Positions 1-64,000 of a stretch of DNA of 64,000 nucleotides are shown in pieces. The number at the start of each line of letters is the position of its first letter. Position 1 is the stretch's first letter. Made by a program: the position numbers and the translations under genes. The stretch is from Chiloscyllium plagiosum (taxonomy: Eukaryota). Under the pieces are notes generated by a model that was not told where the DNA came from, did not search any database, and worked only from the letters and a program-made list of their open reading frames with translations. The stretch covers positions 4,541,738 to 4,605,737 of the forward strand of contig NC_057752.1 of the NCBI RefSeq assembly GCF_004010195.1. The letters are read 5' to 3'.

Positions 1-470
1 ACTGTGTGCGAATAATCCTGTGGCCTGTGAACCGTCAATACTGTTTGTTAATAATAGTGTGGCCTGTGGATGGACTATACAAAGTGTTGAATAATCCTGT
101 GCACTGTGAATGCTCAATACTGTGTGTGAAATATCCTGTGGCCTAAGGATAGTGAGTACTGTTTGTGAATAATCCTGTGACCTGTAAGTGGTCAAAACAG
201 TGTGTTCATTAATCCTGTGGCCGGAGTGATCAATACTATGTGTGATTAATCCTGTGTCCTAAGAATGTTGAATATTGTTTGTGAACATTCCTGTGGCCGG
301 AGGTTGGACAATACTGTGTGTGACTAATCCTCTGGCATGTGAATCATTCGTACTGTGTGTGAATAACCCTTGGCCTGAGGATGATCAAAACTGTGTGTGG
401 GTAATCCTGTAGCCTATGGATAATCAATACGATGTGTGATTAATCCTGTTGCCTGAGGTGGCCGAACCCT
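1..470. repeat. Diverged ~39-bp minisatellite, about 12 copies, running off the window start
   Basis: Recurring caatactgtgtgtgaataatcctgtggcctg at ~39-40 bp spacing. Confidence 0.9.
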
Positions 471-48860: not shown

Positions 48861-51635
48861 ACTCTTTCTGGTGATGCACATGAACTTCCTGAACCACTCA
48901 TTCAGAGGACACAATGTGGATCGCAGGCCTCAAAGATGCAATTTGAACTCATCAGATAATATGAGGAAGGTTAAGAGTCCTTGCAGCGAGGAGGAATCAA
49001 GAGTCCTTCATCACAGCATATAATTGTTTCTTTAATGATTTCTAGGTTCTTTGCATCTACCTAAATTTGGGAAAGCAGTCCAACTGTTGATTGCTCTCTG
49101 TGAAGTGAAGGTTCCTGACCTCAGTTTTCCTAGTTTAAACCTGCTTGACCTACACTTTCAATTCAATTTATGCTTCTTTGAATTTACCATTTCCGTATCA
49201 TTGACTATCACATGGATTTCTTTGATCACCTGAGATCAATCATATTTACTGGAAAAATAGTAAGGCACAATTAGGATACTGGAACATTTAAATTCTACTT
49301 GCAGTCCAATTAAGAAGAAGCTTAATGATGCATTGTGATTTCTTCAAAATCTGGTAGGTACAAAAAAAACATAAAAGATGGAAACATTAGAAACTGTCCA
49401 CAGTACACCAATTATAATTCCCAATCTATTTCATAACTAACTAAGTGTTACCCACTTACTAACACATCCCACTTGCTTTCCACCCCCTGAGGCCTCCACA
49501 CTCACCATCCCCTCTCTACCCACCCAGCATCTCACATCCTCTCCTCGCTCACCATCTCTCCTGTTCCCTGCTCAATGCACTCTCTCTAGTCACAGCATTC
49601 CCCTCATCCCGCCCATTCCCTATTTGCCAGCCCCTCCCTGTTCACCATATCTCACCCCTTAATGTGCATCACCATTAATCAATAACTGTAGCTGCAAGAG
49701 CAGGGTCAGAGGTTGGGAATACTGTGGTGAGTAACTTCCCTCCTGACTCCACAAAGCCTGTCCACCATTCACAAGGCACAAGTCAGGAGTGTGATGGAAT
49801 ATTCCCCACTTGCCTGGATGGGGGCAGCTCCAACAACTTAACACCACCCAGCTCCAACAACTTAACACTTGCCCCCTCTTGATGCCTCTGTCTGGCTCAC
49901 TTTCACTCAGCGCTCTTCTCCTGCTCGCTGAATCTCTTATGCTTGTGACTGAGTCCTGCACGCTGACTCTCACACAGTGACTCAGTCATAAGTCTCATTC
50001 TGTTACTGGTGGGGCTGGCCTGTTGGGTGCCTGAAGAGCATAAAGTGTGGTGAGCCTTTTCAAATAGAGGCAATATAGGGTCCTTGCCACCTGTCTAGCC
50101 CAGAGCCAAGACTTCTTAGCCTGCACAAGGTTCAGTCACATCCATCTCTGCTCAGACCCTCTCACTCACTGCCTCGCTCTCGTGCTCACTGCTGCCCTCT
50201 GATCTCCGTCTCACTTATCCCTTCCTTTCCTGAAGCCAAAGAGAGAGCTTGAGAGAGGGTTGGTGAGGGGAAGGAGGCAAGCAAGGGAGGTTCACAGTGC
50301 GAGCTGGTGAGTCAGAGATGGACAATGAGTGGGCTGCGTACTCAATACCATTGCCTTCGATCATTCAGGCCCAGCAGTGCTTAGGCAATGCTCCGCTCCA
50401 GTGTCTTGTATGATTGTATACCTCCAGTGCTCCATGTACAGCCCGTGTGGTCATTCTGCACCATACACCACTCTGTGTCCTGTAAGAAAAATGACACCTT
50501 TGCAAATTAGAAATCTACTCCTCATTCAAAGGCACATTTTTGGCTAAGACAGTCAGTGTGAAACTTTAACATTTGCTGCTGTGAAATCTGACCAGTCAGA
50601 ATTTGAGTCATTCAACCATTTGGAATGAAATATTAAATCTCTGCTACTCCAGGTTTTCCCTCTCTTTCCCTCTTGTTGTTATGTTATGCTTTGGTTACGC
50701 ACAGGCATTGACCTGTCTGCCATTCACTTGTTGGTGCCATCAGGTTTGAAGTTAATAATTGTGGCCTATTTGCTGGAAGGCATGAGGGCACATCAGCAGC
50801 CTGCCCAGAGATGATGTTCTTTATGATGTATCGTACCTCTTTGATCATCGAGTATCCTCTTTTGCTCTAACTGCCTGTAAATATGTGTCTTCCTGTACTG
50901 TGTTCATTGCACTGGGTGAATAGGGAAGTGTTTTATTTCATCTTTCTGTTACCCTCTCAGTGAATGAGGTAGCGTTTTCTTTATTTCTCTCTCTATGTGA
51001 ATCTCTAGGTGGGATATTTATATTTGCTCCACCCATATGTTTTATACATCCAAACCTCAGGGCCATTGAATTAACAGTAACCTTATGGAGCACATGCATG
51101 ATGACACTGAAAATCGCAGTGAGATTCGGCAGATGCAGAACTCACAAACCACGACCTGTATAAGGCTATGCTGTAACCCAAGGGTGACCGAGCCAAACCC
51201 CCAGACTCTACATTGGGCTGAGTGGGAGACCCAGTCAGTGTCAGCCCGTCAACAGGGAGATTCTGAAGCCTTCACAAAATCCCACTTCTTACCACTTACC
51301 ACCTTTCTGCTTTATGACCAAAGGTGCTTTTACATATCAAGGAGAAACAGAATCCTTTGTGATCTTGAAGTGTGTTGATTGAACCTCCTTGCTCTACGGT
51401 ACCAGCACTGTATCCACCCGAGGTCTACATGATGAAAGGTGTCTCCTGCTGATGCTTGTTACAATTCAGAGATCGAACGTGTTGGGAGATTCTCAGCTGT
51501 GTTGTGGTCTTCTCCACAAGAATACAACTTTCCAACGTATGTATCCAGTAAAGGTATCATCCCAGAAATCACATCCATCAGAAACCCCTTTGTGTATCCC
51601 CCCAGATGACTGATACATATTCAACATTGAACCAA

Positions 51636-51993
51636 TCAACAGGCACAGGTCGCCCTGTTACAAAACCACATCCCAATCTTGGCTTTGCTCTTCGGATATC
51701 CTGTTCCAGCAAGTAACTGACCGTCGACACATTCATGACAAAGAAATGACGTTTCATGAAGAGAGAATGTACTGGAATCATTCCACAGGCCAGGCAGCAT
51801 CTGCGGAGAGAGAGAAAAACAGAGTTTATATTTCAGGTCTGTGACGTTCTGTCAGAAGTAATCCTCACCAGTTTTCCAAGTGATTGCAGAATCGAGGTTT
51901 AATGGAGATCAGGTGAAGAGGTTCCCTTTCCACTTTGGGGGAACTGATGAGGCTGTTTGAGCAGTTCATGTCCCACTGCTGGTATCCATCTCC
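51636..51993 (-). pseudogene. MMP19: Degenerate MMP19-like terminal exon, copy 1
   Basis: Minus-strand acceptor tctttctgtag|GGA GAT GGA TAC CAG CAG TGG GAC (GDGYQQWD; compare MMP19 GSGYWQWD), later GYPKSKAK; frameshifts and a Penelope-derived insertion. Confidence 0.75.
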
Positions 51994-53814
51994 CTACAGA
52001 AAGAGAAAAAAACACAATTTCAATCTTTCCAGCTCTGTGATAATTACTAAACCTGTACACAGCATGATCCCACAAAACCAATTTAGATACTGCTTTGATG
52101 GTAGTAGTCAAGGGGGGAACGCAAGCCAGGATTCCAGGAAAGCTCCCTTCTACAAATAGTACCATGGGCTCTTTTACATTGCAGAGTTTTGTTTAACATC
52201 GCATTTGAAAGTGGCAGTTCTGACAATGCAATAGTCTCTCAGTACTGCGCAGAAGAAAGAAACAGAATATGTGCAGGATCTGGTCTTGAGTCCATGATCT
52301 CTTACTCAGAAACAAGCTAGCCAGGGCTCACACATGTGATACAACTGGACAGGAGAACAACTCACAGCATTAATGAAATGGAGAGCAGTTGCCTCATGTT
52401 ACCAGAAAGAATGAACTTGCATTTCTAAAACCTTCAGCTGTCCCAAAGTGCTTTCCAGTTAATGAAGCACTTTTTAAAGTGTTGTAGCATTTAAGAAATT
52501 AAGGACATTTCCATGACCATCCACGTTTGCCTTGCACCATCATCCTTTTTGTCATTTAATCTCTCCTGCTTTCTACCTTTTCACAGACCTTCCCAGTAAC
52601 TTACTCCTGCCCTCTACACCACACCTGCATCTGTGCTTGTTTAAGCCTTATTGCATCTCTAACTTTTCCCAGGCTGATTTCTACATAGACTCTTTCTGCA
52701 CGGATGCTGCCAGACCTGCCGAGTTACTTCAGTATTTTCTGTCTTTGTTTCAAATTTCCAGTGTCCACAGTACTTTGCTTTAGCAGGAGGCTGTGTTGGA
52801 GAATTGAGACAATGCACAAGGCGATGGATGTGGATCGCTCAACTTTCTCTCGTTGCAGATAACAAGTGGTTGTGGATAATCAATCACATCTTCCTGTCTG
52901 CAGTCACTCATGTTAAGTATTAGCAATTTTGAACCACTCTTATTCATCATGAGGTGGATCATGTCTCTCGGTAGGTGGACACCCACAAGTGCGGTGTTTA
53001 TAGTGCCTGGCCCCCTCATACATATAGTGAAAAGTCTGCACTGAAACATACTCAAGGAAAAGCTGGCCAAATTGACCTGTCTCCCAACAAATGATAATGT
53101 CAGTCTCTCAGACGTCCTTTTTAATATACAGTTATAGATCAATGAAATTAAAGGTTGTGTGGCAAAATCCCTTCCGACCTCTCATTCCACTGACTGATCT
53201 TTGGCCATAAACCGCAAGGATGACATGGGTTGTATGATAAAGGAAACACTCACTGCCACGCAAAATTCAGGTACATCGATAAAAAAGTTCACAATCAGAC
53301 AGCAGTACTGTTGATCAAGAATGTCTTTATATCACTGGGTGTAAAATGTGCGAAAGTATGAAAGGAAACTGATGTCACCGGAGAGTGAGCTGGCTGAGTC
53401 TCAGCCACGTAGGCTGAGCTGGGTTTGAGGCCCAGGGTGATAGCTGTCTGAAATACACATCAGGAACACCTCGTTAAGAGCCCTCATACAATCACACTTG
53501 TACACACTGGTCAGCCTCTTGTTTTAAAAAGAAATCTATTCCTACCTCAATGTAGAAGCTTGCTGTTTGGGTCATCTCCCTCTGACACTGTATCCATCCG
53601 AGGTCTACATGATGAAAGGTGTCTCCTGCTGATGCTTGTTACAATTCGGAGATTGAACGTGTTGGGAGATTCTCAGCTGTGCATGGTCTTCTCCACAAGA
53701 ATACAACTTTCCAACGTATGTATCCAGTAAAGGTATCATCCCAGAAATCACATCCATCAGAAACCCCTTTGTGTATCCCCCCAGATGACTGATACATATT
53801 CAACATTGAACCAA

Positions 53815-54183
53815 TCAATGGGTACAGATCACCCTGTTACAAAACCACATCCCAATCTTGGCTTTGCTCTTCGGATATCCTGTTCCAGCAAACAAATGAT
53901 TGTTGACACACCAGTATTTATTTCCCATGAACAAAGAAAAGATGTTTCATGAAGAGAGAACTTGCTAGAAGCATTTCACAGGCCAGGCAGCATCTGTGGA
54001 GAGATAGAAACAGAGTTTATATTTCAGGTCTGTGACTTTTTGTCAGAAGTAATCCTCACCATTTTTCAAATGATTGCAGAATCGAGATTTAACGGAGATC
54101 GGGTGAAGAGGTTCCCTTTCCTCTTTGGGGGAACTGATGATGCTGTTTGAGCAGTTCATGTCCCACTGCTGGTATCCATTTCC
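53815..54183 (-). pseudogene. MMP19: Degenerate MMP19-like terminal exon, copy 2
   Basis: tctgtag|GNGYQQWD...NLFTRSPLNLDSAII...NGEDYF[insert]FMGNKYWCVNNHLFAGTGYPKSKAK aligns by eye to MMP19 hemopexin repeats 3-4 (GLFTGVP...[30 protein letters not shown]). Confidence 0.8.
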
Positions 54184-55073
54184 CTACAGAAAGAGAAAAA
54201 ACACAATTTCAGCATTTCCAGTTCAGACTGGGTTGATCTGATATCAGCCAGGCCAAGGGGCAGCAATCTGATCATTGGACTTGGTGGCAGTGGACAGGAT
54301 TCCCATAACGGTTTACTACCCACTGGACAGTGCTCATGTGTGGACTTCAGGAGGGGACAAGAACAGGGCCAGCTGCCTGAGAAGGTCCGTGTCTTAGTTA
54401 CAACAACATCAGCAGGGGAGCAGGGCAGAGAAAAATGTCACTGTTTTGTCGAGACCAACTGGTTATGTGAGGCACAATGTCATCCTGGTGAATCTAAATA
54501 TAGTCCCTGAACCACACGGAATAATGATATATTAAAAACACCATCAGCTGATTAGATGGTAGTGTGACCCATTAAGAATAATTTTATATCATTGCACATC
54601 AACGAGCAAGAATAAAGGGAGAGCAATGTTACCAGAGGGTGAACTAATTTAATTTCCAAACTGTGTTGGATTTGATGCTCAGTGTCAGGACTGTCTCAAA
54701 CACCGCATCCTGACTCTCACAAAATCCCACTTCTTACCACTTACTACCTTACTGCTTTATGACCAGAAGGTGCCTTTACATATCAAGGAGAAACAGAATC
54801 CTTTGTGATCTTGAAGTGTGTTGATTGAACCTCCTTGCTCTGCAGTACCAGCACTGTATCCACCCGAGGTCTACATGATGAAAGGTGTCTCCTGCTGATG
54901 CTTTCGGAGATCGAACGTGTTGGGAGATTCTCAGCTGTGTTGTGGTCTTCTCCACAAGAATACAACTTTCCAACGTATGTATCCAGTAAAGGTATCATCC
55001 CAGAAATCACATCCATCAGAAACCCCTTTGTGTATCCCCCCAGATGACTGATACATATTCAACATTGAACCAA

Positions 55074-55326
55074 TCAATAGGCACAGGTCGCCCTGTTACA
55101 AAACCACATCCCAATCTTGGCTTTGCTCTTCGGATATCCTGTTCCAGCAAATAAATGATTGCTGACACACCAGTATTTATCTCCCGTGAAGAACGACATC
55201 CATCAGTTTCCAAGTGATTGCAGAATCGAGGTTTAATGGAGATTAGGTGAAGAGGTTCCCTTTCCTCTTCGGGGGAACTGACGAGGCTGTTTGAGCAGTT
55301 CATGTCCCACTGCTCGTGTCCACTTC
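55074..55326 (-). pseudogene. MMP19: Degenerate MMP19-like terminal exon, copy 3
   Basis: tttttgtcag| followed by SGHEQWD..., then FFTGDKYWCVSNHLFAGTGYPKSKAK in another frame; several frameshifts and stops; no Penelope insert. Confidence 0.8.
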
Positions 55327-56139
55327 CTGACAAAAAGAAAAAAACACAATTTCAGCATTTCCAGTTCAGACTGGGTTGATCTGATATCAGCCAGGCCAAG
55401 GGGCAGCAATCTGTTCATTGGACTTGGTGGCAGTGGACAGGATTCCCATAACGGTTTACTACCCACTGGACAGTGCTCATGTGTGGACTTCAGGAGGGGA
55501 CAAGAACAGGGCCAACCAGTTACAACAACATCAGCAGGGGAAATGAAATTGTTTCTTTCTCATTTTTAGGATATGGACTCTTTTTGAATGTAATAGAATT
55601 TGCAATTAATTTCCTGGGAAGCTTTTCAGTTTAAAATACTTGAAATAGCTAGCTCATGTCATCTATCACTGAATTTATGGAATAACAAATTACTTTCAAT
55701 AAAGTCCTGATCAATTCCTCTTTGACACGATGGACTCCCCACTTCAACACTGACTGCAATATGCTCCTGAGTTTTGAACTTTGCCTCAAGGACCCCACCT
55801 TGCAATTTACCCCGAATTCAATGCAAACTTGGCAAATAGACCTGAGTACTCTGCTCTTGTGAGAGCCAATTTTTCCTTTACAATTGCTCTAACGTGGCTT
55901 TGATGGATTTGTTTCATTGGTGCTCAGGCTGTCAGGCAAAGGGCACACTGCGTGGAGAGGACTCTAGAATTCAGATGGGTGCATCAGATTGATTGACAAA
56001 ATGAAGTGATATGACACAGTGCTATACAAGTTTGGTAACTGAAACTGGCTCTTCTGTCTATTGTTGGACAACTGTAGACAACTTTCTCTCACAGAGCATG
56101 ATTGGAAAGCAATCACTAGCACTCTTATGCAGTCGAGAT

Positions 56140-56572
56140 GAGAGTGGTGCTGGAACAGCACAGCAGGTCAGGCAGCATCCAAGGCGCAGGAAACACCGAT
56201 GTTTCGGGCAAAAGCCAGGGCTTTTGTATTACAGTGAACTTTGTAAAGTTTGTAATGGTATAACCCTCCAGACTACATAGCACCATCGAATCCTTACAGT
56301 GTGGAAACAGGCCATTTGGCCCAACAAGTCCACATTGACCCTCCGAAGAGCAACACACCTAGACCCATTCCCCTACCCTATTACCCTACATTTACCCCAG
56401 ACTAATGCACCTAATCTGCACATCCCTGAACACTATGGGCAATTTAGCATGGCCAATTCACTTAACCTGTACATCTTTGGACTGTGGGAGGAAACTGGAG
56501 CACCCGGAGGAAACCCATGTGGACACGGGGAGAATGTGCAAACTCCACACAGACAGTCACTCAAGGCTGGAA
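56140..56572 (-). mobile_element. Penelope-derived fragment (56140-56215) and HE1 V-SINE (56283-56572)
   Basis: Same diagnostic strings as the other copies. Confidence 0.85.
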
Positions 56573-58857
56573 CAATATTTCATTACTTCAGTCTTTTTTA
56601 CATAATCTGTGTAAAAAGTTGCTGTATTAGATTTTTATAGCTTTAAAGTTGTAAGCAACCTTTACACTATATCTTTTGTCTTCAAAAAAGGGGTAATAAG
56701 ACTCTTTCCAGACATTCAAAAACCACACAGAGAAAAGTAAATTACCAAATAGCTCCAAGAGCAGCAAATGATCAGTAATGAACAAGTGTTTGATTTCATG
56801 ACAACTGAGACCTGAATATCAGTTATTGGGTCCTGACTGCATAGGCTTCCTCAAAAACAACAGGGAAAGAACAATCCAAACTATTGTCTTATCTTAGGAA
56901 AAAGTAATTCAATAACAGGAGCAAACTTTAATCAAGAAGATAGGCTTATGGATAATTGCCACTTTAAGGAAGTAGTAAGGATATAACGAGAGGTGCCATC
57001 AGTCAATATCCCTCAACCGTAAAAGCCCATTAGAGATTGATCTTATGCTGCTTTACAACAAGGCTCACCTACCCTAGGCCAATCAGCATGTAATAATGTA
57101 ATAGATCATGCTGCGGCTCAGAAAGAGTTCAGTTGCTTATGAGCAGCCACTTTCAGTGACCAAAGTGCACATCTAGTTTGAACGTGAAGTAATCCTGCTG
57201 TCCAAGTGGAAGCAGAAGAACTATGAGGTTTTGGAGAGACCAGAGACTGAATGTTGACCCATTTTATAAGCTAAACCAAAAAGCGAGAGTTATAATCCAT
57301 CCCTAAAGTCACAGCCCAGCGTTAACGGGTATTATTTACAGTTTTAGTAAAGTTTCCTCAGTTACTGCACAAGCTAATATTGGGATTGGAGCTTAAATTG
57401 TAATTGAAGTTTTTGACACCTAAGTTTAGCCACAATACAACTCCACAGATTCTGGCATCCCCTCTCTCACTACCTCACACTAATTGCCATCATTTAAGTG
57501 TGAATGACAATAAGCCTAAAGGATGTGAAACTGTAAATTATGCAAATTGAGCAGCATTATATTCATAGATGCATAAGCTTTCCACCAGGGGTCACTGGAG
57601 AGCAATCAGGCACAGTTCCTGAGCAGACATTGAAAAGACACGTTCTGAAAAACACAGTTAACAATTCAGTCCATGAACCCGGAAGCTCAAGTGGCATGTC
57701 CAATGGATTTCCTGCAGTGACTGTATCAGGTTCAGGGATGTTACAGGCCCTTTGAAAGTGGCTCTTCCTGTCCTTAACTCTTACACCCATCCAAATCAGA
57801 CCGAAAACTCAAAATCCTCCCATGTTTACGTATAGGAGAATTCTCCAAATCAGACCTTTATTCTCTCTGAGTGGCTGTGTATTCCTTGAACCTGACAATT
57901 GTCTTGTGTTTCCACTGATCATGTAAAGATCAGGCACTCACCTATCCACTCCCCTGTTACATAGTTTGTAATTAGTTTCAAATTAATGAACGTGATGTAT
58001 TCCCTAGAAGGAAGAAGTAATGATCATCACCCGGGTTGGAGACTCTTTATTCTTATTCACTTATGGGACATGGGTGTCACTGGCTGGGCCCAGCGTTTAT
58101 TGCCCTGTCCATAGTTGCCCCCTTGAGAAGGTGGGGGGGGGGTGAGCTGCCTTCCTGAACTGTGCAGTCCACCTACTGTGGGTTGACCCACAGTGTCCTG
58201 TTGGGGGTTGGGGTGCAGTGTGGAAATTCCAGGATTTTGACCCTGTGACAGTGAAGCGCCTTGTAAATGGTGGACAGGTTTTGGGGAGTCAGGAGGTGAG
58301 TTCCTCAATGCAGGATCCCTAGTCTCTGACCTGCTCTTGCAGACACTGTGATTATGTTGGGAGTCCAGTTGTATTTCTGGTCGACAACTAAATAGAAATC
58401 TCCTGGAGCTCAAGGGTTAACCAGATTATCAGCATTCAGGGTTTGAGGCCCAGGGTGACAGCTGTTTGAAATACACATCAGGGACACCTAGTTAAGAGCC
58501 CTCATACGTTCACACTTGTACACACTGGTCAGCCTCTTGTATTATAAAAGAAATCTATTCCTACCTAAATGTAGAAGCTTGCTGTTTGGGTCATCTCCCT
58601 CTGACGCTGTAGCCATCCGAGGTCTACATGATGAAAGGTGTCTCCTGCTGATGCAATTCAGAAATCGAACATGTTGGGAGATTCTCAGCTGTGTGTGGTC
58701 TTCTCCACAAGAATACAACTTTCCAACGTATGTATCCAGTAAAGGTATCATCCCAGAAATCACATCCATCAGAAACCCCTTTGTGTATCCCCCCCAGATG
58801 ACTGATACATATTCAACATTGAACCAATCAACGGGCACAGGTCGCCCTGTTATAAAA

Positions 58858-59054
58858 TCACATCCAAATCTTGGCTTTGCTCTTCAGATATTCTGTTCCA
58901 GCGAATAAGTGATTGTTGACACACCAACATTTATCTCTCGCGAACATACAAATTCCACCATTTTTCCAAGTGTTTTCAACAGCGAGGTTTAATGGAGATC
59001 GGGTGAAGAGGCTCCCATTCATCTTTAGGGGACTCACCGCTAGTGTCCATCTCC
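58858..59054 (-). pseudogene. MMP19: Degenerate MMP19-like terminal exon, copy 4
   Basis: tttcattag|GGA GAT GGA CAC TAG (early stop plus a deletion), then GSLFTRSPLNLAVENTWKNGGICMFARDKCWCVNNHLFAGTEYLKSKAKIWM*, a hemopexin-repeat pattern. Confidence 0.8.
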
Positions 59055-59449
59055 CTAATGAAAGAGAAAAACACAATTTCAGCATTTCCAGTTCAGACTG
59101 GGCTGATCTGATATCATCCAGGCCAAAGGGCAGCAATCTGATCATTGGACTTGGTGGCAGTGGACAGGATTCCCATAACGGTTTACTACCCACTGGACAG
59201 TGCTCATGTGTGGACTTCAGGAGGGGACAAGAACAGGGCCAACCAGTTACAACAACATCAGCAGGGGAGTGGGGGAAGAAAATTGCCACTTGCGTGAAAA
59301 TCCGTGAATCGTTATTGATTGAACTGTTCATTGAAACAAAAACATGCACAGATTTCCCCATTGAGTTCCTCCTGGGTGAAGGGGGAAATACTCATTGTCC
59401 TGTAGTGATTGGAACCATGGCTAGGTGGATCTGATTGACTATAAGATCC

Positions 59450-59504
59450 CTGATTGGGGCTGTGAACCTGGGCCAATCAGGGAGCCCTGGCTGACAGCTA
59501 TAAA
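59450..59504 (+). promoter_or_regulatory. Putative LTR U3 promoter (CCAAT boxes and TATA box)
   Basis: ctgattgg (~59450), gccaatc (~59472) and TATAAA at 59499-59504 inside the 5' LTR. Confidence 0.55.
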
Positions 59505-59511
59505 CAGAAGG

Positions 59512-60760
59512 GGGATTTGAGGTTTGTCCTCCTCTCCCTGTAAAATGGTTGAACGGTAGGGTTTGGGGCCTAGCTTTGCTGCTCCTCTCCCTTGTAAAAT
59601 TGCTGTCTTTTGTGTACAGCTGTCAATGTTTTTTGTAAACTGGTTAGTAATTTGTTTAATAAAATAATATAAACAGAAGGGGGATTTGAGGTTTGTCCTC
59701 CTCTCCCTGTAAAATGGTTGAACGGTAGGGTTTGGGGCCTAGCTTTGCTGCTCCTCTCCCTTGTAAAACTGCTGTCTTTTGTGTACAGCTGTTAATGTTT
59801 TTTGTAAACTGTTTTGTAATTTGTTTAATAAAATAAAAAAAAAAATAAACAGAAGGCTAAGGGCAGTGTTTGTCACTGGCCACCCGGGTGTTTTCCTATC
59901 TTCCTGGTGGTGGAAATTGAATAAAGATTGGTGCACTTTGTGTCTTTCACTGTGTCTCACACCTGCACACACACACCATGGGTGCTGGGGATAAAATAAG
60001 CACTACCGCACTTAGGTGGTAGTGTGGGGGTTAAATTTGAAAAAAAAAGAGAAAAAAAAATAAACAGAAGGCTAGCTGGAGGGTGGGTAGGCCATCCTGT
60101 GAACCTGAAGGTTGGTAGGCTGTCCTGAAAGCCAGAGGGTGGGTAGGCCACCCTGATGCCAGTCGCCCCGAGAGCCAGATGGTGGGTAGGCCGTTCTGAA
60201 CACTGTTGTCCCGAGAAGGGGTAATCGGGACGGGCTGTCCTAGAGGTGGTCGAAAGGTGTCGGAGCAGCCGAGAGCCAGAAGGTGTGTAGGGGCGGGCTG
60301 AGATCCGGAAGGATTGTGGGTTACCCTGCACGCTGTCGTCCCTGGGAAAGGGGACGGGCTGTCCTAGAGGTGGCTGGAAGGTGTGTCAGGGCGGACCGAG
60401 AACTGGAAGGGGCATGGGGTGGACCGAGAGCCGGAAGGTGCATAGGGGCAGGCTGCCTTAGAGTGGCCGGAAGGTGGGAGGGGCGGGGGCTTGCTGGGTC
60501 TGTATTGTATGCACTGTTTTTTATGTAACTGGATTGTCTTATGTATAAAGGTCATTGTTGCTGTCTTTTTATATTTGAAACTGGGATTTGAGGTTTGTCC
60601 TCAATTCCCTGGAAGCTGGCTGAACGGTCGGGTTTGGGGCCTGGCTTTGCTGCTCCTCTCCCTTGTAAAATTGCTGTTGTATACGGCCGTAAATGTTAAC
60701 TGTTTTTTGTAAATTGTTTTGTAATTTGTTTAATAAAATATTATAAACAGGAAAAAATAA
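59512..60760 (+). mobile_element. Stack of A-tailed non-LTR retroposon 3' ends inserted in the Gypsy 5' LTR
   Basis: Units 59512-59668, 59681-59844, 59857-60059, 60072-60742 and 60752-60760 each end in an A-rich tail and are separated by ATAAACAG(A/G)AGG-type direct repeats. Confidence 0.85.
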
Positions 60761-62030
60761 ATAAACAGGAGGCTCAGAAGGGCTCCTCACTCGAGGAACT
60801 GGCTTGGAGCTGGCTGGTGACAGTTCATATACAGTGCACATGTAAACAAACGGTGACTTAATGATGGGATACCAGCGTCTGTGCAATTATTTCATGGCGA
60901 CAAGAGAAAACAGCACATGCTGGAAGAGAATTTGCTCACAACAGTCGTCTTTGAGTTGGGGTAAGCATTTATGGCATCATGTCGTTATTTGGGAAGCTTG
61001 ACTCATTTGATCTTGCCGTTGAAGACTGGGCACAGTATGTGGAAAGAATGTGTTATTTTTTCCGGGCAAATGACTTTGGGGCAGATGAAAAGAAATGAGT
61101 AATTCTTCTGACAGCTTGTGGACCCGCAGCTTCTTCTGTTAATAGGAGCTTAACTTTCCCTGAGGCACCAGATACTAAAACGTTTCAACAATTGATGGAT
61201 TTGGTTCAGCAATCTTACAACCCCAAACCTTCTCTAATTCTGAGACACCATCGGTAGTTCGAGAACCAGGGGAAACCTGTCTCTGGATTGCAGAGCCTCA
61301 TGCTGGGCATATCCTGAGCAGAGGGCCACTAGGCCAGCCCACAGCAAAGCTGAGCCTTGGCCAAGTGGCTAAAAAGTTCTTCAGGATCTGGGCCGGCAAG
61401 CCATTGTAGTTATTGCTGGTATCCAGGCTTGAGACAGCAAAGGAATCCTACGGAGCCTGAATTGAGTAAGAGAACTCAGAGGCCGGTATCCAGGAGAGTG
61501 CACACCTTGGAAAGCCCACCTACATCTGGCTTGGAACAGCTACATTGGTTCTGATTTGGATGTTGCTAAACAATCAAAATAAATGTCTGGTTAAATGGTC
61601 ACCCAGTTCTAATGGAGGTTGATACCGGCACGGCTGTATCAGGGATTGTGGAACCAGTCTTTAACAAACGTTGCTCTGAACCCCAACCACTAAGTTTGTG
61701 CATGACCTCAGCCAGACTGAGAACCTATACCGGGGAACCTTTACACATTAACGGTACAGTTTCTGTTCCAGTCTCTTATGAGAAGCAGTTGGTTCAGTTC
61801 CCACTGAGTGTAGTAAAAGGCTCAGGCCCAAGCTTGGTGGGTGAAACTGATTCACCGTGATTGGCTCAACATTTTCCAAATAGAAAATGGCTGCCTGAGT
61901 GAACAACTAATTAAATATCCGAAGGCTTTTCAGGAAGGTCTAGGGACTATCAGAGGCGCCAAGGCCACTTTACATGTTGACCAGGAATTCCGCAATTTTG
62001 CAAAGCCACCCAGTGCCATTTGCCTGGCAG

Positions 62031-62295
62031 GAACATTTTTAAGGTGAGATTCCATGGGGGCAATTTTTTTAAACAAAGCATTGTTCATGTTTGAAATGAA
62101 CGTCCAGAAGAAATGGTGAATGTGGGTACAGTTACAATGTTTCAAAGACATTGTGATAAGTACATGAATAAGAAATTATTGGAGGGATATGGGCTGAACA
62201 CAGGCTGGTGGGACTCGTTTAGTTTGGGATTATGGTTGGCATGGACTGGTTGGATTGAAGGGTCTGTTCCCAAGCTGTATGACTCTATGACTCTA
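62031..62295 (+). mobile_element. CR1 3' end inserted in the Gypsy pol region
   Basis: Interrupts the RT-adjacent sequence; ends in (tgactcta)n. Confidence 0.85.
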
Positions 62296-64000
62296 CAGGC
62301 AGAGATCAGGAGGCTGAAAAGCATCAAAGCAATGCAGTTTGTGGGATGGGCAGCGCCAGCCATACCGATTGTGAAGCCAGACAGGTCAGTTTGTCTTTGT
62401 GAGGATTTTAAAATGGTAAAGCATTTCTTGCAGCTGGATAAATACCCACTTCCTCGCACAGAGGATTTATACATAACACTGGCAGTGTGAAGCTGAACAT
62501 GAGCCACGCCTACCTGCAATTACAGTTAGATGAGGATTCCCAGAACTATGTTACAATTAATACCCAGAAGAATCCATTCTGGTTTTAAACTTTCTGGACA
62601 CCCTTCTTGTCACCGCTGACAATATCAGACTGTGGACACAAAAAGATCCAGTCCTGGCAAAACTAAAACAGCTGGTGCTGATGGGGGAAACAGAAGGGCC
62701 AAAACAACCAGAACTGAAGCTTTTCTGGACCCAGAGAGACCAGATCACAACATTACAATGGAGGAGCCAGAGCGATTGTCCGAAGTAAATTTCACCACCA
62801 GATACTGGCTGAGCCTCACCAGGGGTGTCCAGAATAAAGATGTTGGCAAAATGTTATGTCTGGTCGCCAGGATTGGATGCAGACATAGCCGCATTGGTGG
62901 GGCAAGGCCCAGAGTGCCAACGATAACAGCAGCTCACCCACATTTGTGGGGATGGCCAGATAAATCCTGTGCTCAGTTACACATCGACTATGCTGGTCAT
63001 TTCATGGGTTCAATGTTCTTGGCCATTGTGGATGACCATTCAAAGTGATCGGACGTGCATGGAGTTCATCCGTCAACCTCGAGGAGACGAATGAAAAGCT
63101 GCTAGCATCGTTCACAATACACGGACTCCTGGCAGGATTGGTCACAGACAATGAGATGTCATTGACCAGCAGGGAATCTGCGTATTTGCTAAAGTCAAGT
63201 GGCATTTAGCACATAAGGATAGCTCCATACCACCTGTCATCCAACAGTCTGGCGGAAAGAGCAGTCCTAACGTTGAAGGCAGGTTTAAAGAAACAGCCTA
63301 CAGCTTCACTCGATACCAAAGTGTCCTGGTTCCTGTTCGATGATAGGATCATCCCTCATGCAACCGCAAGGAGAGCTCCAGCAGAGTTGCTAATGGGGAG
63401 GAGACTCCCCACCAGGTTAAACCCGATATTCCTAGACCTGGGGGGGAGGGTGAAACGGCAGCAGGAACACCAATGTCAGTCACATGCTTCCTCGAAGTGA
63501 CAGAGACAGTTTACCTCAGGGGACGAAGTCTGGTGTCGAAACCACAGGAATGGCCCGGTATGAGTGCGAGGTCAGGTCCTGTGCTGTACAAAGTTCGGGT
63601 AGGGTAGGCGGTCCTGAACAAACATGTTCAACCACGCAAACGGGGCAAAAGCAAAACATACCCAGCCCCTCAGAATAGCCAGAAGGCCTGTCAGAAACCA
63701 TGGGTTCTACTCCTCTGTCCAGCGTCAAAGAAACCTCAAAGTCCGAGATGCATGCAGCCTTGATATCGTTACCACTGGAAGAAGAGGACGAAACTCGATC
63801 GAGATCTTCCAGATGCAAGAGATGGACTACGGTCCAGTACATGCTGCCTGTATCAGAGTCAGTCAGAGGAACCAGATCGGGGATGAAAATGACCCAAGGG
63901 AAGCTACAAGAAAGAGAACAGGCCAACATCCCTGGACTGAGTTGGGCAGGGATGTAGTGATTGGAATGAGATTGGCCAGGTGGATCACATTGACTATGAG

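Follow-up and report, generated by a model that had tools for sequence, protein, structure and literature searches.

The window, by which we mean the whole 64,000-nt stretch of Chiloscyllium plagiosum DNA analysed here, contains a Gypsy-type element whose 5' LTR carries, directly behind its TATA box, a row of retroposons set between copies of one short target motif. This raises the question of whether such elements seek out a promoter, which elements they are and what the site would offer them. In this work we searched the genome (3.56 Gb) for their relatives, cited below by L numbers. Taken as a whole, the results make it reasonably probable that a Tx1-clade LINE (family B) and its passenger (family A) strongly prefer the TATA box of Gypsy-type LTRs, insert in the orientation of the LTR and likely use the host LTR as their promoter. 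The features of the locus are as follows.

59396..59400, + strand: left 5-bp flank of the Gypsy-type element, TGTCC (the right flank of the 3' LTR is GGTCC)
59401..59499, + strand: U3 of the 5' LTR; starts with TG, 84/102 columns match the empty 3' LTR
59500..59511, + strand: TSD copy 1, target motif, 12 nt
59512..59668, + strand: unit 1, a 5'-truncated piece of family A (young type) that lacks poly(A) and abuts the motif
59669..59680, + strand: TSD copy 2
59681..59844, + strand: unit 2, a family-A piece truncated at its 5' end, with poly(A); begins at the same base as unit 1
59845..59859, + strand: TSD copy 3, 15 nt, matched by copy 4 together with the first base of unit 4
59860..60059, + strand: unit 3, end of the family B 3' UTR plus A-tail; Tx1-clade LINE
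60060..60073, + strand: TSD copy 4, 14 nt; has the A variant common to copies 1–4
60074..60760, + strand: unit 4, an older and longer piece of family A that contains GC-rich 28/43-nt repeats
60761..60894, + strand: R-U5 of the 5' LTR with TSD copy 5, ends with CA; 103/136 columns match the 3' LTR
60895..63952, + strand: PBS-like TGGCG, decayed internal region and purine tract
63953..64000, + strand: start of the empty 3' LTR; its TATA reads TAGAAA, and it continues to L031:926

The host has the anatomy of a Ty3/Gypsy-type element, with TG...CA LTRs, a PBS, a purine tract and a 5-bp TSD (four of five positions match). Its U3 has ATTGG at 59408 and 59453, CCAAT at 59473 and a TATAAA whose first T is at 59499. 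Without the inserts the 5' LTR measures 233 nt (U3 59401–59499 plus R-U5 60761–60894), runs from TG to CA and is followed by the PBS-like TGGCG at 60895, in good agreement with the ~230-bp LTR that an earlier, sequence-only reading of the locus had restored by removing the inserts. The 3' LTR past 64000, which that reading had proposed for comparison, is empty; it is 236 nt long and extends beyond the window (L031:691-926). The internal region (60895..63952) retains protease, RT and integrase remnants with many stops and frameshifts. The order of its domains fits PR-RT-RH-IN, and in this decayed copy the matches are weak: an aspartyl protease at E 0.036, the RT/RNase H chain 4ol8 at E 0.46 and an rve-bearing K02A2.6-like cluster at a score of 0.93. 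A Pfam search with five window frames and a PDB search with the integrase remnant gave no match; a related element in L039 has an RT_RNaseH match at 6e-7. We call the host Gypsy on these leads, namely its anatomy, the weak domain matches and the RT_RNaseH match of its relative. Its LTRs (window 59401-64000) are about 80% alike and its 5-bp flanks nearly identical. Judged by sequence, the host is an old insertion, yet it received inserts that are 99% like their relatives. The Gypsy RT region is split at about 62030-62295 by what looks by eye like the 3' fragment of a LINE, with short TATGACTC repeats at its end. At window 51300-59270 lie four dispersed copies of one repeat (families D1, D2 and D6), 69-97% alike, the last of which adjoins the LTR and has a 173-codon open frame with no Pfam match.

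The six target motifs stand exactly where they had first been placed (59500, 59669, 59845, 60060, 60743 and 60761), and all inserts have the orientation of the LTR. Units 1, 2 and 4 have a common 3' end, as had also been noticed, with unit 4 extending 509 nt further 5' (60074 vs 60583). Other parts of the sequence-only reading had to be revised. It had counted five inserts where there are four, since the supposed unit 5 is the tail of unit 4, whose last part is a target-motif copy of its own (60743-60751) followed by an A-tail (60752-60760). This stretch is not an insert because TATTATAAACAGG plus A-tail also ends a family-A copy, L090, at a non-LTR site with an unrelated TSD; similar ends are found in L014 and L023, again at non-LTR sites with unrelated TSDs. 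The A-rich tails ascribed to all inserts hold for unit 2, which has poly(A), and not for unit 1, which runs directly into the motif. Nor do the inserts part the TATA box from U3: U3 and TATAAA remain intact upstream, and what is displaced, by 1.26 kb, is R-U5. The A variant of TSD copies 1-4 is absent from copy 5, and unit 4 was therefore inserted first. A 10-bp hairpin is predicted at 60000-60025, just 5' of the family B A-tail (z -2.9), and no such hairpin was found in family A tails. An Rfam search of window 59000-61200 gave no match.

Targeting of the LTR TATA box by families A and B is near certain. On the side of the LTR, 60 loci were picked by U3 alone, of which 57 remain after removal of two query loci and one duplicate (40 scored U3 relatives range from 87 to 100%). 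Fourteen of the 57 LTRs are filled, always immediately behind the TATA box and at no other LTR position, and the insert starts 13-21 nt after the U3 anchor in 12 of these 14. The comparison of filled with empty LTR copies, called for by the sequence-only reading, thus finds most of them empty. That the whole block is a fixed part of the LTR family is ruled out, as 43/57 LTRs have no A or B match behind the TATA box (two of the 43 show short tails by eye). LTRs with an intact motif are filled in 9/20 cases vs 5/37 for a changed motif (p=0.02). U3 was absent from the background, which comprised 82,650 nt of flank and window 1-59,000. In a motif-only control within this background, plain ATAAACAG sites were filled in 0/9 cases (p=0.03), or in 1/10 (p=0.10) if an ambiguous site is counted, in what is a small sample; this tenth site belongs to a B array with a scrap of R-like sequence at its end.

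On the side of the elements, the searches gave 1594 and 2181 candidates for family A and 415 first-look candidates, with 40 scored, for family B. The flanks of relatives of units 3 and 4, tabulated as had been suggested, are not random sequence. Among resolved copies picked by their 3' ends and read by eye, 8/23 of A and 14/27 of B lie at LTR sites; the 25 A loci and 29 B loci divide into 8 and 14 at LTR sites, 15 and 13 at non-LTR sites and 2 and 2 open, and an automated count of LTR sites gave 7 for A and 14 for B. The sampled loci are top-scoring hits and not random draws, 29 mid-A loci were left out of this count because most had open ends, and its library contained a short nested repeat, liable to extend the apparent bounds of arrays, that was dropped for the U3-side count. 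TSDs are mostly 11-17 nt long, and those at non-LTR sites mostly have an A-rich word at their start; the 8-mer ATAAACAG is present at only two of the 28 non-LTR sites (L010 and L038). A LINE is described as target-specific when one repeat makes up >20% of its flanks (PMC4494074), and the above fractions of B and A both exceed this threshold of Kojima's. The stringency of Tx1L or R1, in which nearly all copies are at one site, is not reached, 28 of the 50 resolved copies being at non-LTR sites, a count that does not support the strict sequence specificity first read into the locus. With 22/50 copies at the LTR TATA box and the rest at loose A-rich sites, the preference is therefore strong and not exclusive. 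What stands of the original claim is that at least two retroposon families have repeatedly entered at the TATA box of this LTR, target-primed and with TSDs, and that one of them is of the Tx1 clade.

The clade of unit 3 had hitherto been unproven; autonomous copies were sought, as had been advised, by 5' extension and a tree, and by these comparisons family B is a Tx1-clade LINE. Unit 3 is physically linked to ORF2, which continues into unit-3 sequence in L050, L101 and L118, and the C-terminal CCHC region of ORF2 is 52% identical to residues 1117-1238 of P14381 (Xenopus Tx1 ORF2). An 880-residue open stretch in L121 (4154-6793) has an Exo_endo_phos match (6e-13) and then an RVT_1 match (5e-30); its endonuclease matches L1-EN structures. 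This ORF2 is 50% identical over 99% to P14381, and full-coverage fish matches score 35-40%. In a quick tree of 26 rows chosen from 120 listed hits, with a midpoint root and no L1 outgroup, family B groups with P14381, turtle, sturgeon and one metagenome row at SH-aLRT 100. An upstream ORF, a candidate for the gag-like ORF1, begins about 2.2 kb before ORF2; it is broken in the two copies read and has no Pfam match. The head of the element was reached in 30 of 40 loci. Three of these heads (L112, L124 and L127) stand directly on R of another LTR subtype, while the other 27 consist of a copy of B's own 3' end fused to a 35-45-nt R-like remnant; 18 of the 27 came from a query of that subtype and nine were among 12 picked by ORF2. 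The 5' copy of B's own ORF2 end and 3' UTR measures from about 25 to at least 630 nt and is cut just before B's AATAAA; loci in which B 5' ends carry this TART-like terminal repeat are L222-L241 and L113-L131. Rfam gave no ribozyme family at gathering score in L089 or L127. Rearranged copies were also seen: in L113 at about 740-1200 (oriented), an inverted copy of the B 5' UTR precedes a full-length B, and in L103 several long B pieces are clustered and rearranged.

Family A has a full length of about 1.7-2 kb (about 1.7 kb in L089) and contains GC-rich 28/43-nt repeats, and no ORF of at least 250 codons was found in the family-A loci scanned. It lacks the hallmarks looked for in a SINE: its head is LTR R, it has long T tracts inside, and Rfam matched no tRNA, 5S, 7SL or snRNA head on it (L089; window 59000-61200). 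A and B have no 3' tail in common (blastn of A vs B gave a weak head match, E 0.12), and another Tx1 family could therefore be the motor of A. The 64 distinct A ends comprise 29 with poly(A), 15 with the motif directly and no poly(A), eight with the motif plus poly(A) and 12 unclassed. Short R pieces, about 20-35 nt from TATA and followed by poly(A), were seen in L021, L071, L074 and L150; in L021 the piece comprises ~35 nt of R, and the copy stands outside any LTR. Cleavage in these pieces may be due to a new AATAAA spelled by A-tail plus TSD.

The heads of the elements bear on what the site would offer them. The first ~75 bases of A resemble R and stop before the AATAAA of the LTR, and the B head also stops before it. 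We number heads from the A after the first T of TATA as +1. In 31 A heads, mutual identity minus identity to 15 empty LTRs is 0.01 at +13..26 (95% interval -0.04 to 0.05, bootstrap) and 0.14 at +27..40 (0.09 to 0.18), and a sliding profile of A heads against LTRs turns at +26..31. Base +27 is the A of TCAGT, which we take to be an initiator-like word at the usual distance from a TATA box, and in three heads (L083, L004 and L194) a short TSD is joined straight to this base. A TATA context was found in 24/30 rows picked by A's 5' body, a set that includes the query locus and two probable duplicates, vs 8/23 copies picked by the 3' end (p=0.002); 12 of these 24 rows lie directly on U3, of several subtypes. 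In two 5'-picked copies at non-LTR sites, L195 and L204, the element begins no earlier than about +30. A strict +27 start is not borne out everywhere: at eight loci with both flanking copies, locus-specific sequence at +13..26 is common to the two in five and not in three (L065, L069 and L094). L069, the sole A copy with true R-U5 behind it, has a TSD of just 17 nt, which together with the start of L074 near +19 implies that some RNAs extend 5' of +27. The derivation of the 5' heads from LTR R, which the sequence-only reading had missed, points to promoter use and not to mere damage.

Because the front ends consist of LTR sequence, the LTR promoter would likely be borrowed in place of one of their own, and we put this promoter borrowing at an even chance or somewhat better. 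The B endonuclease would nick at the start of the ATAAAC motif and prime reverse transcription, and A, which has no ORF, would be moved in trans. The duplication would leave U3, CCAAT and TATA directly before the insert, so that Pol II could start at the LTR initiator about 27 nt behind TATA. An A RNA would thus begin with R, and its cDNA end could pair with target R, rebuilding promoter, initiator and head. Cleavage about 17 nt behind A's AATAAA would fall in the downstream TSD, so that many RNAs would end in target sequence, an end that could pair with the nicked strand. Each TSD would be a new target, by which arrays would grow, and pairing with an earlier insert would give neighbours the same 5' start. 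The most complete form of this model, for and against which we hold the balance to be equal, is that family A, a Pol II retroposon with no promoter of its own, would rebuild its transcription unit at each jump behind an intact U3, its RNA starting in R, ending in the target motif and pairing at both ends, and that the Tx1 motor would use the same promoters and would have replaced an eroding R head with its own 3' end. One raw poly(A) run with the same species label gave 215 RNA reads, in both directions, and a second run gave 0; no transcription start was observed in these two runs, where read ends show no pile-up, and no RNA record is among the listed holders. Speaking against promoter borrowing, too, are the 28/50 resolved copies outside LTRs and the 27/30 B heads that are not plain R, and an internal promoter in A or B is conceivable.

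A preference for the TATA box might also arise if the elements sought a safe haven only, with a sequence-preferring endonuclease, internal promoters in both families, and R-like heads that are relics of an old 5' capture and aid 5' joining. The Tx1L endonuclease is described as sequence-specific in vitro (PMC1950540), and a strict +27 start is at odds with L069, L065, L094 and L074, with no start site seen. Such relics fit less well with a switch from target-like to element-like sequence that falls at an initiator-like base, at which three heads begin exactly, and with heads that, in both families, stop short of the LTR poly(A) signal, and we consider targeting of this kind alone rather unlikely. 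Alternatively, a loose L1-like preference for A-rich sites would make the LTR TATA box no more than an open and frequent site, whose tails attract later insertions. The 28/50 copies at non-LTR sites, with TSDs mostly starting with A-rich words, and the U6 and tRNA copies that ride along would suit such a preference, but it does not lead one to expect 25% of LTRs filled at one position vs 0/9 unambiguous non-LTR ATAAACAG sites, nor the 8-mer ATAAACAG at just 2/28 non-LTR sites; we regard it as very improbable.

The growth of arrays can be considered apart from the choice of site. We found 23 neighbouring pairs with a common TSD and 5' start, which have 61 substitutions in their 5' halves vs 88 in their 3' halves (p=0.03); in 22 of the 23 the two members resemble each other (90-99%) more closely than they do the median copy from other loci. 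The four differences between units 1 and 2 all fall within their final 63 nt (p=0.03), and three of them are among eight sites that segregate in other copies (p=4e-4), a pattern more in keeping with two insertions than with duplication at the DNA level. Units 1 and 2 start at a recurrent truncation point: among 85 copies spanning that position, three other loci begin at the same base after a TSD and two more start within a few bases, so that homology-guided joining is not needed for units 1 and 2. Neighbours with the same start could more generally be DNA tandem duplications or independent hot-spot truncations and not homology-guided insertions, an explanation of array growth only that we hold possible if somewhat doubtful. 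It would agree with the 90-99% likeness of the pairs, with a 5'-3' gradient that is modest and with the recurrence of the units 1/2 start in other loci, but not with four differences between units 1 and 2, three of them segregating elsewhere, nor with their different tail types, and many pairs terminate at different poly(A) points.

Several arrays contain other sequences. L198 has full-length U6 snRNA at 819-925 and 1170-1276 (Rfam 109 and 108 bits) fused to a B 3' piece in a TATA array; U6-LINE chimeras have a parallel in L1. A tRNA copy lies in a B array at L035:1404-1476 (Rfam 55 bits), and the same tRNA-like head joined to a B tail, read by eye in L035 and L051 (~230 nt; Rfam gave no match in L051), is a candidate SINE. 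L242 with L232 (G000:C86386) reads U3, TSD, B head, N gap, A tail, and then the same TSD and B head, which may be an artefact of the assembly or else a long duplication that flanks a non-homologous insert. L232 and L237 are ruled out as filled and empty alleles of one site, B being directly on U3 in both contigs.

Parts of this behaviour are known from other elements. Tx1L of Xenopus laevis targets the DNA transposon Tx1D (PMC1950540). Like family B, Tx1L (ORF2 = P14381) has an APE endonuclease and an RT, the two being 50% identical over 99% and on the same tree branch, and a transposon as target; unlike in Tx1L, the target of B is an LTR TATA box, the preference is partial, arrays are head to tail and the head is target-derived. 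Two crocodilian Tx1 families, Tx1-8_Crp and Tx1-4_AMi, are described as preferring LTR retrotransposons (Kojima 2015, PMC4494074). The main text of that paper gives no position in the LTR; Tx1-4_AMi has a U1-derived head, unlike the R-derived head here (PMC4494074). For SINEU, transcription from the flank is proposed there as well (PMC4494074). R2 is described as co-transcribed from the promoter of its target, with target sequence at the RNA 5' end aiding full-length joining (PMC6895275); it has a restriction-like endonuclease, Pol I transcription and a ribozyme, whereas here the endonuclease is of APE type and the promoter would be a Pol II LTR promoter. For SART1, target-like words in the RNA are proposed to pair with the target (PMC7265360). 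HeT-A is described as starting in the 3' UTR of the upstream copy, and TART as having 5' and 3' UTRs with direct repeats (PMC1636488). Both recall the inserts here in their head-to-tail arrays, and these start sites and repeats resemble the 3'-end copy that B carries at its 5' end; they differ in being telomeric and of another clade, and the B repeat, which stops just before AATAAA, is joined to what remains of an LTR. SVA, like family A, is a non-coding poly(A) retroposon with GC-rich repeats, in SVA a VNTR. In SVA_F1 a captured external MAST2 promoter is described as transcribing one subfamily (PMC4494074); SVA captured one locus and inserts widely, whereas each new LTR site would provide family A with a promoter again. 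In a search covering mainly open-access papers, we found no report of Tx1 elements at LTR TATA boxes or of R-derived heads. LTR-preferring Tx1 families are already known; the R-derived head of A and the target motif at some of its 3' ends go beyond them, and the proposed promoter borrowing is what is new and can be tested.

Target-specific LINEs are usually taken to seek harmless sites. Here the site is a core promoter for Pol II that belongs to another transposon, and the heads suggest that the promoter itself is taken. If true, two classes of transposon in a vertebrate would be linked by a strategy like that of R2, but with Pol II, and thousands of solo LTRs would be a renewable supply of promoters for LINEs. 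5' end joining is an open step of LINE integration, and because the heads and their neighbours record the transition from target to element, they constitute a natural multi-copy data set for it. Roughly one in four of the LTRs sampled has been rewired in this way, which bears on what such LTRs transcribe.
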